NCBI GenBank assembly: GCA_964016885.1
Contig: OZ024740.1
Coordinates: forward strand, 204,414,001-204,478,000
Source: Eledone cirrhosa
Taxonomy: Eukaryota
Direction: 5' to 3'
Length of the DNA: 64,000 bases
Part shown: one piece after another, positions 9,001 through 20,440 of the stretch
How positions within the stretch are numbered: the first letter of the stretch is position 1
How the letters are laid out: each line of letters opens with the position of its first letter
The notes under the pieces: generated by a model
Seen by the model: the letters and a program-made list of their open reading frames with translations, nothing else
Told to the model about the DNA's origin: nothing
The model's database searches: none
Translations under genes and position numbers: made by a program

Positions 9001-11665
9001 AAGGAGTTTATTATAGACCCAGACGTGACTGTGTTGTTAAGGAGTTCGTTATAGACCAAGACGGGCTGTGTTATTAAGGATTTTATTATCGACCCAGACG
9101 TGGCTGTGTTGTTAAGGAGTTTGTTATAGTCCCAGACATCGCTGTGATATTAAGGAGTTCGTTATAGACACGAACGGGGCTGTGTTGTTAAGGAGTTCGT
9201 TATAGACCCAGATGTGGCTGTGTTATTAAGGAGTTTGTTATAGACCCAGACGTGGCTGTGTTATTAAGGAGTTCGTTATAGACACAGACGTAGTTGTGTT
9301 ATTAAGGAGTTTATTATAGACCCAGACATGGCTGTGATGTTAAGGAGTTCGTTATAGACACAGACGGGTCTTTGTTGGTAAGGAGTTTGTTATCGACCCA
9401 GACGAGGCTGTGTTGTTAAGGAGTTTGTTATAGACCCAGACATGGCTGTGTTATTAAGGAGTTCGTTATAGACCGAAATGTGGTTGTGTTCTTAAGTAGT
9501 TTATTATAGACACGGACGTGGTTGTGTTGTTAAGGAGTTTATTATAGACCCGGACGGGGTTGTGTTGTTAAGGAATTCGTTATAGACCCAGATGTAGTTG
9601 CGTGGTTAAGGAGTTTATTATAGACCCAGACGTGGCTGTGTTGTTAATGAGTTCGTTATAGACCCAGACGTGGCTGTGTTATTAAGGAGTTTATTATAGA
9701 CCCAGACGTGACTGTGTTGTTAAGGTGTTTGTTATAGTCCCAGACGTGGCTGTGTTGTTAAGGAGTTTATTATAGACCCAGACATGGCTGTGTTATTAAG
9801 GAGTTCGTTATAGACCGAAATGTGGTTGTGTTGTTAAGGAGTTTATTATAGACACGGACGTGGGTGTGTTGTTAAGGAGTTTATTATAGACCCAGACGGG
9901 GTTGTGATGTTAAGGAATTCGTTATAGACCCAGATGTAGTTGTGTGGTTAAGGAGTTTATTATAGACCCAGACGTGGTTGTATGGTTAAGGAGTTTATTA
10001 TAGACCCAGACGTGGTTGTGTTGTTAAGGAGTTCGTTATAGACCCAGACGTAGTTGTGTTGTTAAGGTGTTTGTTATAGTCCCAGACGTGGCTGTGTTGT
10101 TAAGGAGTTTATTATAGACAGAGACGTGGCTGCGTTGTTAAGGAGTTTGTTATAGACCCAGACGTGGCTGTGTTATTAAGGAGTTTATTATAGACCCAGA
10201 CGTGGTTGTGTGGTTAAGGAGTTCGTTATAGACACTGGCGGGGCTGTGTTATTAAGGAGTTCGTTATAGACACAGACTGGGCTGTGTTGTTAAGGAGGTT
10301 GTTATAGACCCAGACGTGGCTGTGTTAATAAGGAGTTTATTATAGACCCAGGCGTGGTTGTGTGGTTAAAGAGTTCGTTATAGACACAGACGGGGCTGTG
10401 TTGTTAAGGGGTTTGTTATAGACCCAGACGTGACTGTGTTATTAAGGAGTTCGTTAAAGACGTAAATGTTGTTGTGTTGATAAGCAGTTTATTATAGACA
10501 CGGACGTGGCTGTGTTATTAAGGAGTTTATTATAGACTCAGACGTGGCTGTGTTGTTAAGGAGTTCGTTATAGACACATGCGGGGCTGTGTTGTTTCGGA
10601 GTTTGTTATAGACCCAGACGTGGCTGTGTTATTAAGTAGTCTATTATAGACACGGATGTGGTTGTGTTGTTAAGGAGTTTATTATAGACCCAGACGGGAC
10701 TGTGTTGTTAAGGTGTTTGTTATAGTCCCAGACGTGGCTGTGTTGTTACGGAGTTTGTTATAGACCCAGACGTGGCTGTGTTATTAAGTAGTTTATTATA
10801 GACACGGATGTGGTTGTGTTGTTAAGGAGTTTATTATAGACCCAGACGGGGCTGTGTTGTTAAGGAGTTTATTATAGGCCCAGACGTGGTTGTGTGGTTA
10901 AGGAGTTTATTATAGACCCAGACGTGGCTGTGTTATTAATGAGTTTATTATAGACCCAGACGTGGCTGTGTTATTAAGTAGTTTGTTATAGACCCAGACG
11001 TGGTTGTGTGGTTAAGGAGTTTATTATAGACCCACACGTGGCTGTGTTATTAAGGAGTTTGTTATAGAATCAGACGTGGCAGTGTTGTTAAGGAGTTTGT
11101 TACCGACCAAGACGTGGCTGTGTTGTTAAGGAGTTTGTTATAGACCCAGACGTGGCTGTGTTATTAAGGAGTTTCTCATAGACCCAGACGTGGCTGTGTT
11201 GTTAAGGAGTTTGTTATAGACTCAGACGTGGCTGTGTTGTTAGGAGTTTGTTATAGACCCAGACTTGGCTGTGTTATTAAGGAGTTTGTTATTGACCCAG
11301 ATCGGCTGTGTTGTTAAGGGGTTCGTTATAGACACAGACGGGGCTGTGTTATTAAGGAGTTTATTATAGACCCAGACGTGGCTGTGTTATTAAGGGCTTT
11401 CTTATCGACCCAGACGTGGCTGTGTTATTAGGGATTTTATTATAGACCCAGACGTGGGTGTGTTGTTAAGGAGTTCGTTATAGACCCAGACGTGGCTGTG
11501 TTGTTAAGGAGTTTGTTATAGACCCAGACGTGGCTGTGTTATTAAGTAGTATGTTATAGACCCAGACGTGGTTTTGTGGTTAACGAGTTAGTTATAGACA
11601 CAGACGTGGCTGTGCTGTTAAGGAGTTTATTATAGACACGGATGTGGTTGTGTTGTTAAGGAGTT
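1..11665. repeat. 38-bp satellite array, block 1 (continues beyond the left edge)
   Basis: Tandem monomer GACCCAGACGTGGCTGTGTT(G/A)TTAAGGAGTT(T/C)(G/A)TTATA, with occasional 23-bp truncated monomers GACCCAGACGTGGCTGTGTTATA (e.g. 151-220); the ORF track shows nothing here until the LTR junction. Confidence 0.98.
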
Positions 11666-12034
11666 TATAGCGGGAATACTGGGCTGCATGAATGTAACAA
11701 GGAATACATTGTTTGTGTAGATAATATTTAATTAACAATGGTAGATAGTATAGTTGACATGTCAAAGGAATGGTGATCGAATGAAGCAAAGTTAGTAGTT
11801 ACCGTTTTGATTGCCAGGCAAACGCGGCTGGCAGAGGACGCCTGGCTAAGGCCAGGCGCCTGTTGGCCAAATGAATGGCTGAGCCAAATGAGAGGCTCTT
11901 GACCTGGTGCCGAAAAGGCAATGAGAGCAAGAGAGCTTAAAGTTGTTAGTTTTATAGGGCTCTGACCGGAAGTTGCAGAAAGGGCTCTACTTCCCGTCTA
12001 GATCCTAATCAAAACAAGGGAGACAACCGCTACA
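11666..12034 (-). repeat. 3' LTR of element A (LTR-A)
   Basis: Minus strand begins TGTAGCGG and ends CCGCTATA; preceded on minus by a polypurine tract. Confidence 0.95.
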
Positions 12035-12047
12035 TAACCTCCCGCCA
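12035..12047 (-). promoter_or_regulatory. Polypurine tract of element A
   Basis: Minus-strand TGGCGGGAGGTTA abuts the TGTAG LTR start; homologous to GGCGGGGGATAA before the LTR at 27652. Confidence 0.8.
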
Positions 12048-12459
12048 GAATTTTAGTGTATAAAAATCGAAATGAAAATATGTAGCAAGTTGGCGAGAAT
12101 GTTGTAACAGGCATGAAAATTACGACAAAAGAATGTTTGGAAAAATCAATGATAGATATCAAGGTAGCCAACCGCTCTTGGCCAGAGAACGACTGGACAT
12201 CCATCTATCCATCACCCAAAGATACAATGTAATAAAGTAAAAGTAATAGAAGAGCTCAAAGTTCAAATGTACAAAATATAGTTCACAGGTGTGCAATCAC
12301 ATGACAGCAGGAAAGAAAGTGTGTTCCAGAGAATGAATGCAGGTGGTTTCTGTTCTGTGGTATATCGTGAAATTTCCAACCTCCGAATGGATTTTCTCAC
12401 AGGACGAGTGCTGCAAAAATAAATTCTCTGGCTTTGGTTGTTGGTGAAGCTGAGTTGAT

Positions 12460-12566
12460 GTATTGCTGTTGCTGTTGCTGCTGCTGCTGTTGCTGCTGTA
12501 TTGCTGTTGCTGTTATATTGCTGTTGCTGCTGCTGTTGCTGTTATATTGCTGTTGGTGTTGCTGCC
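12460..12566. repeat. (GCT/GTT)n trinucleotide tract in the element A 3' UTR
   Basis: Direct reading; absent from the homologous UTR at 27300-27350. Confidence 0.85.
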
Positions 12567-12953
12567 GAGTGAGCGTATTCGGTGTTTAAATTCACAGTAA
12601 ACAAAAAAATTTTCAGAAAAAATGAGTTGCGCAAAGTGCTAGAAATAGCAGCCGAAGTTGATGGTCGATGTTGAGAATGCGTTGACCTGGAAGGGTCCAG
12701 AGGCCAGCGACCAGAGAAATAAGCATTCTTACTAAATGCGCGGTTATCAACGGTAAATTTACATTGCAAACTTATAAACCGGCAAATAGAAGAATATAGC
12801 TTAAAATGTTCGTTGTAAAGGAAACGAAAAACATATATATACATCCAGTGAAATGGTCATGCGAGGTACATTGCAATACAATAAATCAAATAAATAAGAA
12901 CAACAAAAAAAATATATATATATATATATATATATAAGGCACCAATGGCCAGT

Positions 12954-13423
12954 TCATATAAAAATAGTTTGGCAGAACTTCTTGGGCCAGTGGACTCTCC
13001 GACCGAAACGGGTCGTAGTCTTGTATGTAGGTGATGGTGGCGAAGAAGGAGCAGGTGTATGCACAATGGTGAAAGATTTGGGTATTTGTGGCTCGGGTGA
13101 ATGAGCGTCATTGTATGCCCTTTTCAGTCTATCCACCGAAATTGTCTCTCTGGACCCCTTAACGTCTACAGTGAAATGTTTGTCAGTGCGTGTTAACACA
13201 CGGTAGGGTCCAGAGTATGGTTGTGTGAGGGGTGGTCTCACAGCATCGTTCCTTACGAACACATGGGTCCACGAGGCAATGTCCCTCGGGACCGCATGTT
13301 TTACAGTTTGCTTCCTCGTATCCATCGGCGGCAGGTCCTGTAAATAAGAACGCAGACGGGATACGTAGGAAAGCGGATCTTGGAAAGCAAGATCAACAGG
13401 GGCAAGCATTTGCCCAGGCCAAC
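12954..13423 (-). pseudogene. pol: Gypsy integrase C-terminal fragment (GPY/F region)
   Basis: Translation PGQM...THVFVRNDAVRPPLTQPYSGPYRVL...HFTVDVKG...ISVDRLKRA...TRFGRRV, typical of Ty3/Gypsy integrase ends; 5' part missing. Confidence 0.92.
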
Positions 13424-14670
13424 GCCTGGTGGATAACATCACCGGCTTTTCAATTCATGGCCAGGAAGCCAAGGCCCCAATAGTCAGCCCCGTGTTCTTT
13501 ATCGCTGCCGCTGGTGACGCTTACCATGCGTTACTGGGTTCTTTCCCGGAGCTCACGGATGGAAATTTTCGAGTCACTGACCCAACACACTCGACCGAAC
13601 ATTTTGTTTCCACCACCGGTGCCCCAGTGTTTTCGCGCTCACGCCGCTTACCGACGGAAAAATTAAAGGCAGCACGGTCCGAGTTCGACCATATGCTGCA
13701 GCTGGGCATTATTCGCCCATCTACGAGTCCTTGGGCTTCACCGTTACACATGGTGCCCAAGACTTCCGGCGACTGGAGACCCACGGGGGATTATAGGAGG
13801 TTAAATGCCATGACCGTCCCGGATAGGTATCCCATTCCCCATCCCCACGATTTTGCATCTTCACTGCAGGGGTGTAAGATTTTTTCTAAGTTAGATTTAG
13901 TGCGAGCCTACCACCAAATTCCGGTCAGGAAGGAGGATATTCCGAAAACTGCAATTACAACCCCTTTCGGATCATTCGAATTTTTGACCATGCCTTTCGG
14001 ACTCAGGAACGCCGCTAGCACTTTTCAGCGGTTCATAGACGAGGTCACGCGTGGTCTGGACTTCGTCTATGCTTACATAGACGATATTCTCGTCGCTAGT
14101 TCCTCTCCGGAAGAGCATATGCGCCACATGCTTCTCTTACTTCGGCGACTTCAGGATTACCGCGTTCGCGTGAATCCTGCAAAGTGTGTTTTCGGTTCCA
14201 CTTCCCTACATTTTTTAGGCCACCTCATCGACGCCGAAGGTATTAGGCCGCTCCCTGAGCGAGTTCAAGCCATACAGGAGTTACCTCCGCCTACTACACT
14301 TCACCAGTTGCGTCACTTCTTAGGCCTAATCAATTTCTATAGGCGTTTCATTCCTCATTGTGCTAATTGGCTATCTTCCCTTACTGACATTTTTAAAAAA
14401 TATCGTAAGAAGAATGAAGACATTTCCTTGACACAAGGACAGCTTCAGGACTTCCAGTCTGCCAAGACAGCCCTCACTAGTTCTTCTTTGCTAGCCCACC
14501 CGGTACCAGAGGCCAAGCTTTCGCTTTGTGTTGATGCATCTGATACCGCTGTGGGAGCAGTTTTGCAGCAGTCTTACGCTGAAAGCCAACAACCTTTGGC
14601 ATTTTTCTCGAGGAAGTTGAAACCAGCAGAAACACGTTATAGCACGTTTGGGCGGGAATTATTAGCCATC
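13420..14670 (+). pseudogene. pol: Gypsy (CsRn1-like) pol fragment: reverse transcriptase and N-terminal RNase H, inverted relative to element A
   Basis: Uninterrupted frame with [71 protein letters not shown] and [11 protein letters not shown]; no ATG start; runs into LTR sequence at 14670. Confidence 0.96.
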
Positions 14671-15081
14671 TGCCACGACAATCGAATCGCTGTTCTCTAG
14701 ACAGGAAGTAGGTGGAGTTGCTTCCCTTTGGGATTGACCAAACTCCCTAGTGGTCACTTCCGGTCAACAGAGATAAAAGGAGCGATTAACCGCGAAATCT
14801 CTCTCTCGCCTCCTGATTCCTGAAGTGGTAACATCTCCGACCATAGCTGGTGATTCTTGCTGGACGACCCTTTCGTTACCAAGCACCATGCAGCTCACCA
14901 GCCTGAGATGAGAGCGCCAAGACATTTCTACCAACTTCAGAATGGTATTATTGCCATCGGGTAACAACCCTTTACATTATACACCTTTGACTTCTATGAA
15001 GTAAAACTTTATCACACACACACACCAGTACTCTTTGTCTTTCATATTATGTTGCATGTGCACCGATATTTATTTCCTAAA
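14670..15081 (+). repeat. Orphan LTR-B (lacking first ~20 bp) inside element A
   Basis: Near-identical to 27672-28004 and similar to 26407-26815; followed by a PBS. Confidence 0.93.
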
Positions 15082-15082
15082 G

Positions 15083-15100
15083 TGGTGACCCCGACGTGAT
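15083..15100 (+). promoter_or_regulatory. tRNA-Trp primer-binding site of LTR-B
   Basis: TGGTGACCCCGACGTGAT is the complement of the last 18 nt of metazoan tRNA-Trp(CCA) as I recall the sequence. Confidence 0.9.
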
Positions 15101-15104
15101 GAAC

Positions 15105-15136
15105 GGCTGCGTGTTCGTATCACGTCAGGGTTACCA
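15105..15136 (-). promoter_or_regulatory. Extended (32-nt) tRNA-Trp PBS of element A; on plus it reads as the tRNA-Trp 3' end including CCA
   Basis: Plus strand GGCT GCGTG TTCGTAT CACGT CAGGGTT A CCA corresponds to variable loop, T arm, acceptor strand and CCA. Confidence 0.88.
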
Positions 15137-15137
15137 A

Positions 15138-15506
15138 TATAGCGGGAATACTGGGCTGCATGAATGTAACAAGGAATACATTGTTTGTGTAGATAATATT
15201 TAATTAACAATTGTAGATAGTATAGTTGACATGTCAAAGGAATGGTGATAGAATGAAGCAAAGTTAGTAGTTACCGTTTTCATTGCCAGGCAAACGCGGC
15301 TGGCAGAGGACGCCTGGCTAAGGCCAGGCGCCTGTTGGCCAAATGAATGGCTGAGCCAAATGAGAGGCTCTTGACCTGGTGCCGAAAAGGCAATGAGAGC
15401 AAGAGAGCTTAAAGTTGTTAGTTTTATAGGGCTCTGACCGGAAGTTGCAGAAAGGGCTCTACTTCCCGTCTAGATCCTAATCAAAACAAGGGAGACAACC
15501 GCTACA
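15138..15506 (-). repeat. 5' LTR of element A (LTR-A)
   Basis: Direct repeat of 11666-12034; followed on minus by T then the TGG PBS. Confidence 0.95.
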
Positions 15507-16326
15507 AGTTTATTATAGACCCAGACGGGGCTGTATTGTTAAGGAGTTTGTTATAGACCCAGACGTGGCTGTGTTGTTAAGGAGTTTATTATAGGCCCAG
15601 ACACGGTTGTGTGGTTAAGGAGTTTATTACAGACCCAGACGTGGCTGTGTTATTAAGGAGTTTATTATAGACCCAGACGTGGCTGTGTTATTAAGTAGTT
15701 TGTTATAGACCCAGACGTGGTTGTGTGGTTAAGGAGTTTATTATAGACCCAGACGTGGCTGTGTTATTAAGGAGTTTGTTATAGAACCAGACGTGGCAGT
15801 GTTGTTAAGGAGTTTGTTACCGACCCAGACGTGGCTGTGTTATTAAGGAGTTTGTTATAGACCCAGACGTGGCTGCGTTATAGACCCAGACGTGGCTGTG
15901 TTATTAAGGAGTTTCGTATAGACCCAGACGTGGCTGTGTTGTTAAGGTGTTTGTTATAGACTCAGACGTGGCTGTGTTGTTAGGAGTTTGTTATAGACCC
16001 AGACTTGGCTGTGTTATTAAGGAGTTTGTTATTGACCCAGATCGGGTGTGTTGTTAAGGAGTTCGTTATAGACACAGACGGGGCAGTGTTATTAAGGAGT
16101 TTCTTATAGACCCAGACGTGGCTGTGTTATTAAGGGCTTTCTTATAGACCCAGACGTGGCTGTGTTATTAAGGATTTTATTATAGACCCAGACGTGGCTG
16201 TGTTGTTAAGGAGTTCGTTATAGACCCAGACGTTCCTGTGTTATTAAGGAGTTTATTATAGAGCCAGACGTTTATGTGTTGTTAAGGTGTTTGTTATAGT
16301 CCCAGACGTGGCTGTTTTGTTACAGA

Positions 16327-16480
16327 TATAGCGAGAGTACGCTCTTGGCCTGGTGCCGAAAAGGCAATGAGAGAATGGGAACTTACAGTTGTTAGTTTTA
16401 TAGGGTTCTGACCGGAAGTTACAGAAAAGGTTCTACTTCCCGTCTAGATGTTAAACCAAACAAGGGAGACAACCGCTACA
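16327..16480 (-). mobile_element. Internally deleted solo LTR related to LTR-A, copy 1
   Basis: TATAGCGAGAGTAC start joined to GCTCTTGGCCTGGTGCC...AACCGCTACA; flanked by CAGA/CGGA (TSD with one change). Confidence 0.9.
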
Positions 16481-17569: not shown

Positions 17570-17723
17570 TATAGCGAGAGTACGCTCTTGGCCTGGTGCC
17601 GAAAAGGCAATGAGAGAATGGGAACTTACAGTTGTTAGTTTTATAGGGTTCTGACCGGAAGTTACAGAAAAGGTTCTACTTCCCGTCTAGATGTTAAACC
17701 AAACAAGGGAGACAACCGCTACA
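17570..17723 (-). mobile_element. Internally deleted solo LTR, copy 2
   Basis: Same sequence and same flanks as 16327-16480. Confidence 0.9.
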
Positions 17724-20286: not shown

Positions 20287-20440
20287 TATAGCGAGAGTAC
20301 GCTCTTGGCCTGGTGCCGAAAAGGCAATGAGAGAATGAGAACTTACAGTTGTTAGTTTTATAGGGTTCTGACCGGAAGTTACAGAAAAGGTTCTACTTCC
20401 CGTCTAGATGTTAAACCAAACAAGGGAGACAACCGCTACA
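20287..20440 (-). mobile_element. Internally deleted solo LTR, copy 3
   Basis: Same sequence (one difference, GAATGAGA vs GAATGGGA) and same flanks. Confidence 0.9.

Follow-up and report, generated by a model that had tools for sequence, protein, structure and literature searches.

The head-to-head junction of two tRNA-Trp primer-binding sites (PBS) at positions 15083-15136 of the window, i.e., of the whole 64,000-nucleotide stretch of DNA analysed here, likely belongs to a young, integrase-inserted chimera of two LTR element families, one termed A and the other the CsRn1-type Gypsy family B, joined when B strong-stop DNA mis-primed on a repeat in the A leader. The feature is akin to two known kinds, the mis-directed plus-strand transfer and the extended primer site. 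Consisting of an LTR with a fresh primer copy that meets a wrong site over a short overlap, the join in the window fits such a transfer.

The junction lies inside a single insertion on the minus strand (11666-15506), within a 38-bp satellite. In the sense of family A, this element reads LTR-A, PBS, extension and an inverted block (PBS-B, LTR-B and RNase H-RT), followed by the B integrase end, the 3' region and a second LTR-A. The 3' LTR of family A (11666-12034, minus strand, 369 bp) differs at three positions from the 5' LTR (15138-15506, minus strand). Two 4-bp copies of the target site, the left one at 11662-11665 inside the satellite and the right one at 15507-15510, flank the element, and its removal restores an empty satellite unit exactly. 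The segment at 12035-13425 (minus strand) holds the polypurine tract, the 3' untranslated region and the C-terminal part of the B integrase. The untranslated region is of A type near the LTR and from 12258 onward 94% like B, and a Pfam search found no domain in the integrase C-terminal piece. This segment overlaps by 9 nt (13417-13425) with an inverted reverse transcriptase-RNase H fragment of family B (13417-14669, plus strand), which is 98.6% like the B copy L108. LTR-B (14670-15081, plus strand) is joined to the RNase H end without overlap and lacks about its first 20 nt, a detail beyond the preliminary description. The B parts stand in permuted order, unlike in a nested insertion.

At the junction itself, the 18-nt PBS-B (15083-15100, plus strand) is a perfect complement of host tRNA-Trp positions 76-59 and would represent a fresh primer copy with the normal stop before position 58. 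Its last three bases, GAT (15098-15100), overlap with the A leader and form the junction. The adjoining four bases (15101-15104, minus strand; GAAC on the plus strand) are family-A leader bases that precede a PBS-like repeat. They are followed by an inherited extension of the A PBS (15105-15118, minus strand), which is complementary to tRNA-Trp 58-45 with a mismatch at 58 (15118), and by the family-A PBS (15119-15136, minus strand) with inherited changes facing tRNA positions 67 and 72.

Several other features were observed in and near the window. Positions 1-30000 consist of the 38-bp satellite array with several A and B insertions, and about 26 kb before the window starts, the same satellite holds L114, which is an independent second fusion of A and B. 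A further deleted B element at 26385-28005 comprises LTR-B and 14-15 nt of PBS, jumps over a 5-nt overlap to the integrase end and continues with the 3' region and a partial LTR-B. Three internally deleted LTR-A pieces (16341-16480, 17584-17723 and 20301-20440) seem to have been duplicated together with the satellite. A pair of tRNA-Ser(CGA)-like sequences (46653-46725 and 46888-46960) in opposite orientation lies inside repeated AT-rich flanks; this pair (46.7-47.0 kb) and position 41271 were set aside as unrelated to the junction.

The preliminary description had reported two head-to-head tRNA-Trp primer sites between LTRs of two families, with complementarity to mature, CCA-ended tRNA-Trp extending beyond the 18-nt PBS. 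Its letters for 15083-15136 and its count, which places 15118 at tRNA position 58, were confirmed, as were the opposed orientations of LTR-B and LTR-A. As reference we used the host tRNA-Trp gene L053, called by ARAGORN, which gave calls in 9 of the 30 pattern-search loci. Read in tRNA sense with its CCA end, the 32-nt segment 15105-15136 corresponds to positions 45-76 of L053 with three mismatches (A58T, G67A and C72T), and within positions 45-66 the only mismatch is at 58. The comparison with host tRNA-Trp that had been proposed as a check bore out the match at 45-57 and the identity of base 58, which is A in 61 of 63 anticodon-to-T-loop matches of the genome. It also brought up two T58 copies, the gene-like L152 and the fold-back retrocopy L153, both of which have A at position 57 vs G in the window and in family A. 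A host gene as the source of the T58 of family A was rejected on these grounds, L152 being gene-like with A57 and L153 being no gene. L152 is one of more than 40 tRNA-Trp gene copies in a tandem cluster at G000:C4:353.39-353.49 Mb.

Family A is about 2.1 kb long, has two LTRs, a PBS and a polypurine tract, and is present in many copies. No match to reverse transcriptase or integrase was found in the copies L105-L107 and L119, and the 3' region is 86-91% like that of family B; family A is a non-autonomous LTR element. The stretch 15098-15136 of the window is ordinary A leader: two leader patterns that accept any base at 58 have 450 and 498 matches in the genome. Among the first 100 matches listed of the 498, base 58 was T in 96, C in 4 and A in none; of the same 100, 73 have a PBS with both non-tRNA changes, 80 have T72, and 10 have a PBS that is perfect against the main tRNA-Trp. 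Re-copying of the extension in each cycle was rejected, since A58 was absent from the 100 listed matches and three of the four C58 copies have the inherited PBS. A DNA search with the window leader, which favours window-like copies, gave 43 matches; of 30 loci retrieved, 29 contained the motif, all with T58 and GAAC, and the thirtieth was seen in the search for LTR-B followed by PBS. Ordinary A copies carry GAT before GAAC as well as GAAC itself.

The boundary between U5 and PBS is repeated imperfectly, over a short length, in the A leader 46 nt downstream of the LTR end, and this repeat can also pair with a PBS strand via a 7-nt block and a 3-nt end. The ordinary leader forms a weak hairpin (z -1.4 and -2.0) and was rejected as a strong structure; in the fused form, the hairpin is strong (z -5.4). 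Two copies (L157:3909-3990 and L158:3986-4067) show a 46-nt tandem duplication of PBS and extension that equals the spacing of the direct repeat in the leader. At four further loci (L067, L089, L120 and L123), LTR-B is joined in sense to the A interior at the PBS; these are LTR swaps between the helper and the non-autonomous family.

Family B is about 6 kb long, with gag and pol frames and a tRNA-Trp PBS. The CHCC Gag motif (CX2HX9CX3C) was present in all three copies scanned (L108-L110), and Pfam assigned RVT_1 and RT_RNaseH. Judged by its PBS, Gag motif, duplications and Pfam domains, B is a CsRn1-type Gypsy element. LTR-B followed by its PBS gave 39 matches, and the 30 retrieved comprised 20 copies with ordinary B leader, five with the join described here and five that jump elsewhere. 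Eight of the 20 ordinary copies (L064-L066, L068, L076, L082, L084 and L085) have an insertion of 1-2 bases in the C run of the PBS. The related families C, D and E carry CHCC motifs too. An extended tRNA-Trp complement reaches position 45 in D and position 37 in E and is absent from B. In 26 of 30 C copies (L178-L207) the 45-52 block is kept, in register where the PBS has its full length; the C bases facing the T-loop have diverged, and 25 of the 30 lack two bases of the PBS. The complement of 45-53 is conserved in A, D and E and in 26 of 30 C copies. This conservation and the common end of the A, C and D complements at G45 suggest that the extended complement is a conserved, putatively functional primer site.

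The join itself recurs. A 19-place junction pattern gave 14 genome-wide matches vs none for the reversed control, and the junction is thus not due to chance. These 14 copies lie at ten loci, where the partner LTR is B at four, of C type at two and A at four; at an eleventh locus (L115), B is joined at the 7-nt block and not at the 3-nt end. The inner layouts of the fused elements differ. All eight complete fused elements covered by the count (L116, L155 and L156 lie outside it) have a 4-bp target duplication, each a different one, and one of them, L113, has B ends; the ordinary controls L105 and L108 showed no clear target duplication. In the window element and four others, identity between the outer LTRs is 99.2-100%. 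In a tree of 28 LTR-A arms, seven fused arms need five changes, at least four of them forced by well-supported branches; the tree is without L114 and arms that are short or rearranged, and recombining LTRs need not be tree-like.

The two arms of the join differ in their PBS. On the partner side, the PBS is of tRNA type at two diagnostic sites in 14 of 14 copies and perfect in 13, the junction pattern being open to either diagnostic state and blind to one minor PBS variant (6 of 100). On the A side, the non-tRNA T72 is present in eight of the 11 complete sites of fused copies. If the partner arms at the four A-to-A loci were drawn from ordinary A copies, all four would be of tRNA type with a chance of 0.0001-0.001. 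As the partner arms are of tRNA type and this chance is so low, a simple fold-back is excluded.

At L063, L077, L090 and L172, PBS ends have jumped to various other sites, with overlaps of 2-5 nt. Joins at L089, L167 and L171 have no exact overlap with respect to reference copies, and those at L171 and L175 are inverted and lie away from the A repeat. These scattered jumps point toward a general mis-transfer with the A repeat as its hotspot. A search for head-to-head PBS cores with spacers of 8-19 nt found 11 loci vs 12 in the control; nine of the 11 are of the present type and two lack matching LTR arms. A 60-nt palindrome resembling the tRNA 3' end was observed at L216:1488-1547, likewise without matching LTR arms.

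From the target duplications, the matched LTRs and the recurrence of the join, the fused element most likely formed during reverse transcription. A spare B plus-strand strong-stop DNA would end in the normal 18-nt copy of tRNA-Trp and mis-prime on the PBS-like repeat in the leader of an A template, which we presume was co-packaged. Reverse transcriptase would extend the captured strand backwards through the A extension, PBS and LTR, further template switches would lead to a cDNA with two A LTRs, and this two-LTR cDNA would be integrated with a 4-bp duplication. The supply of free strands would come from the tRNA-copying strong-stop strand, presumably a dead end in most cases, as in Ty1 and Ty3. 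According to the available part of PMC5371799, the initial plus strand of those elements includes a primer copy; after displacement it builds up as a dead-end product, and new element copies do not inherit the sequence of the primer. Free strands with a fresh PBS end would prime wherever a short overlap permits. A strong-stop strand that usually ends there would account for the non-tRNA PBS that most ordinary A and C copies keep. Escape from tRNA fragments, to which the preference of mouse endogenous retroviruses for mismatched PBSs is attributed (PMC7472051, available part), may, by analogy, be an alternative reason.

On the A plus strand, the repeat is the best site for pairing with the PBS (-9.6 kcal/mol), in a duplex that involves the 7-nt block only and leaves the 3' end unpaired. 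On the B plus strand, some sites pair more strongly (-10.6 to -11.2), and none of them was seen in a join. With these stronger sites unused and the 3' end free, pairing alone does not explain the hotspot, and pairing energy was rejected as its sole cause; nearness to the PBS or opening by the bound tRNA may contribute. The join of RNase H to LTR-B in the window is unexplained by the mechanism. A more tentative and rather doubtful idea is that the A leader acts as a trap, in which the PBS-like repeat would capture helper or own strong-stop DNA and the 32-nt complement would rescue strands that read through m1A58; the genome would thereby hold an in vivo record, made by retrotransposon reverse transcriptases, of tRNA-Trp methylation at 58 and probably 37.

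The preliminary description had instead read the junction as a fresh fossil of tRNA modification: two cDNAs, both newly extended past m1A58, one with a misread base and the other with a 2-nt skip at 58/57, were joined end to end in a single event. The letters fit this reading on their face, fresh read-through copies do exist in the genome, and the GTTC-ATC of family A could be an ancient fold-back copy that missed two bases. For this junction, however, it is refuted and has next to no probability, as the extension, T58 and GAAC occur in hundreds of ordinary A copies and the A-side PBS departs from the tRNA at two inherited positions. Both GAAC and the preceding GAT are ordinary A-leader bases and the B strand shows a normal 18-nt stop, so that no skip is left to explain; the proposed inspection of ordinary LTR-B copies found GAAC in none of the 20 with the ordinary B leader, which does not rescue the skip. 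Nor was the joining a single event, given that the identical join recurs at ten loci with B, C and A as partners, and none of the 11 head-to-head loci with 8-19 nt spacers proved to be a double read-through. Equally improbable is an error of assembly at a hairpin within repeats. The satellite context would allow it, and in the four of nine sequencing runs compared on 14600-15520, no read or contig among those listed crossed the junction, the depth at 15065-15095 being about 1-2 in the two raw-read runs. The ten loci, however, differ in their flanks, have target duplications that match and show variants of their own, and removal of the element restores the empty satellite unit exactly.

The remaining alternatives, both unlikely, concern the order of events and the time of formation. 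A stalled A plus strand that ends in the leader could prime on the strong-stop DNA of the partner, which would give the same junction and would explain why copying ran backward through LTR-B almost to its 5' end, both in the window and in L114. A fresh PBS of tRNA type would be expected on such an A strand, second-round strands excepted, yet most A sides have the inherited T72, so that this order has a low probability. A chromosomal origin after insertion, by nested opposite insertions with a microhomology deletion or by fold-back correction of the leader palindrome, has a probability that is a little lower still. The 3-nt overlap, the quasi-palindromic leader with its strong fused hairpin and the unstable satellite around the site are all compatible with such an origin. 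A fold-back would copy the element's own PBS, however, whereas the arms differ at inherited sites, and it cannot supply LTR-B or LTR-C. The permuted order of the B parts in the window does not match nested insertions, and the same base was used at ten loci. Mis-priming of strong-stop DNA on the A repeat thus remains the preferred reading.

The T58 of the window is an inherited trait of family A at the base facing m1A58. Its origin in a misread of m1A58 by a founder reverse transcriptase is somewhat favoured; drift at a site unable to pair is less probable but a serious candidate. In vitro, misincorporation of T at m1A is favoured when U follows (PMC4787781, available part). Because A and not U follows position 58 here, T58 is no special m1A signature.

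Read-through copies elsewhere carry a clearer signal. In 18 CCA-ended tRNA-Trp copies that reach position 42, sought with position 58 open, this base was A in 13, C in two, T in two and G in one; non-A58 was thus present in 5 of 18 vs 1 of 62 gene-like copies (Fisher p 0.002). With one mismatch allowed anywhere, 28 CCA-ended copies had 15 mismatches, five of them at 58 and no more than two at any other site. This enrichment at 58 (p 7e-5; 5e-4 without the E-family rows) is based on rows that are not all independent, four of the 28 being the leader of one family and others perhaps related. A B- or C-type LTR end stands after the copy in at least 17 of the 28. Two of the four longest copies have a mismatch at G37, and the copies tend to end at 35-41 and 28-29; tRNA-Trp positions 37 and 26 are presumably methylated. 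The CCA-ended copies past 58 (L124-L151 and L153), many beside LTR ends, are likely true fossils of tRNA methylation. Two copies, L164 of family A and L134 of family E, show a minor tRNA variant at position 47, mismatch tRNA-Trp at 58 and then return to the leader of their family; both probably derive from read-through strands that the extended site rescued. At L153:400-560, an LTR-PBS read-through into the anticodon stem is followed by a fold-back and forms a PBS palindrome with T58 on both arms; this head-to-head pair has a spacer longer than the 8-19 nt range searched.

A literature search, with older subscription papers mostly outside its scope, found neither recurrent inverted PBS-to-leader fusions nor genomic m1A58 fossils beside LTRs. 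Retroviral vectors show aberrant second-strand-transfer deletions. The present joins resemble these in that a PBS end is joined to an internal site via a short overlap, and differ in being inverted, inter-family and recurrent at one site. Elements of the CsRn1 clade of Ty3/Gypsy (PwRn1 and AgCR) have a tRNA-Trp PBS, CHCC Gag and 4-bp duplications (PMC2582038, available part), and B is like them in its tRNA-Trp PBS, CHCC Gag, RT-RNase H and the 4-bp duplications of B-ended elements; the extended PBS, the non-autonomous partner and PBS fusions find no mention in the available part of that account. In cqgypsy_1 of Culex, CCA-ended tRNA sequence likewise stands at a Gypsy PBS. There, however, two whole, different tRNAs and a 26-nt duplication are described, which the authors read as an inserted tRNA dimer (PMC3286476, available part).

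The retroviral plus strand normally stops after 18 nt at m1A58 (PMC8599865 and PMC11251516, available parts), and the partner arm here shows the same 18-nt stop (PMC8599865). The enrichment of mismatches at 58 in read-through copies parallels the misincorporation signature of m1A (PMC4787781). In retroviruses, according to the parts available, read-through blocks transfer (PMC8599865 and PMC11251516), whereas here an extended complement apparently allowed the transfer of some such strands (L164 and L134). A second block against the 5' T-arm strand and variable loop (45-53) recalls the bipartite PBS of Ty1 and Ty3 and the primer activation signal of HIV-1 (PMC5371799 and PMC11251516, available parts); the block here, a putative contact, differs in following directly after the PBS in exact register.

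The ending and transfer of the Gypsy plus strand are known mostly from yeast and retroviruses. The dead-end strong-stop DNA of Ty1 and Ty3 (PMC5371799, available part) has its likeness here in primer sequence that is mostly not inherited and in a tRNA-type PBS on strayed strands. The primer copy is 12 nt long in Ty elements vs 18 nt here, integrated head-to-head products are not described in that part of the source, and with 10-20% of A copies being of tRNA type, non-inheritance is not absolute in this genome. The genome supplies natural products of these steps, namely inherited non-tRNA PBSs in ordinary copies, tRNA-type PBSs on strayed strands, a capture site used repeatedly between families, and tRNA copies that run past a methylated base and contain errors there. 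With such products, both the Ty-type dead-end model and the idea of extended primer pairing become testable in an animal.
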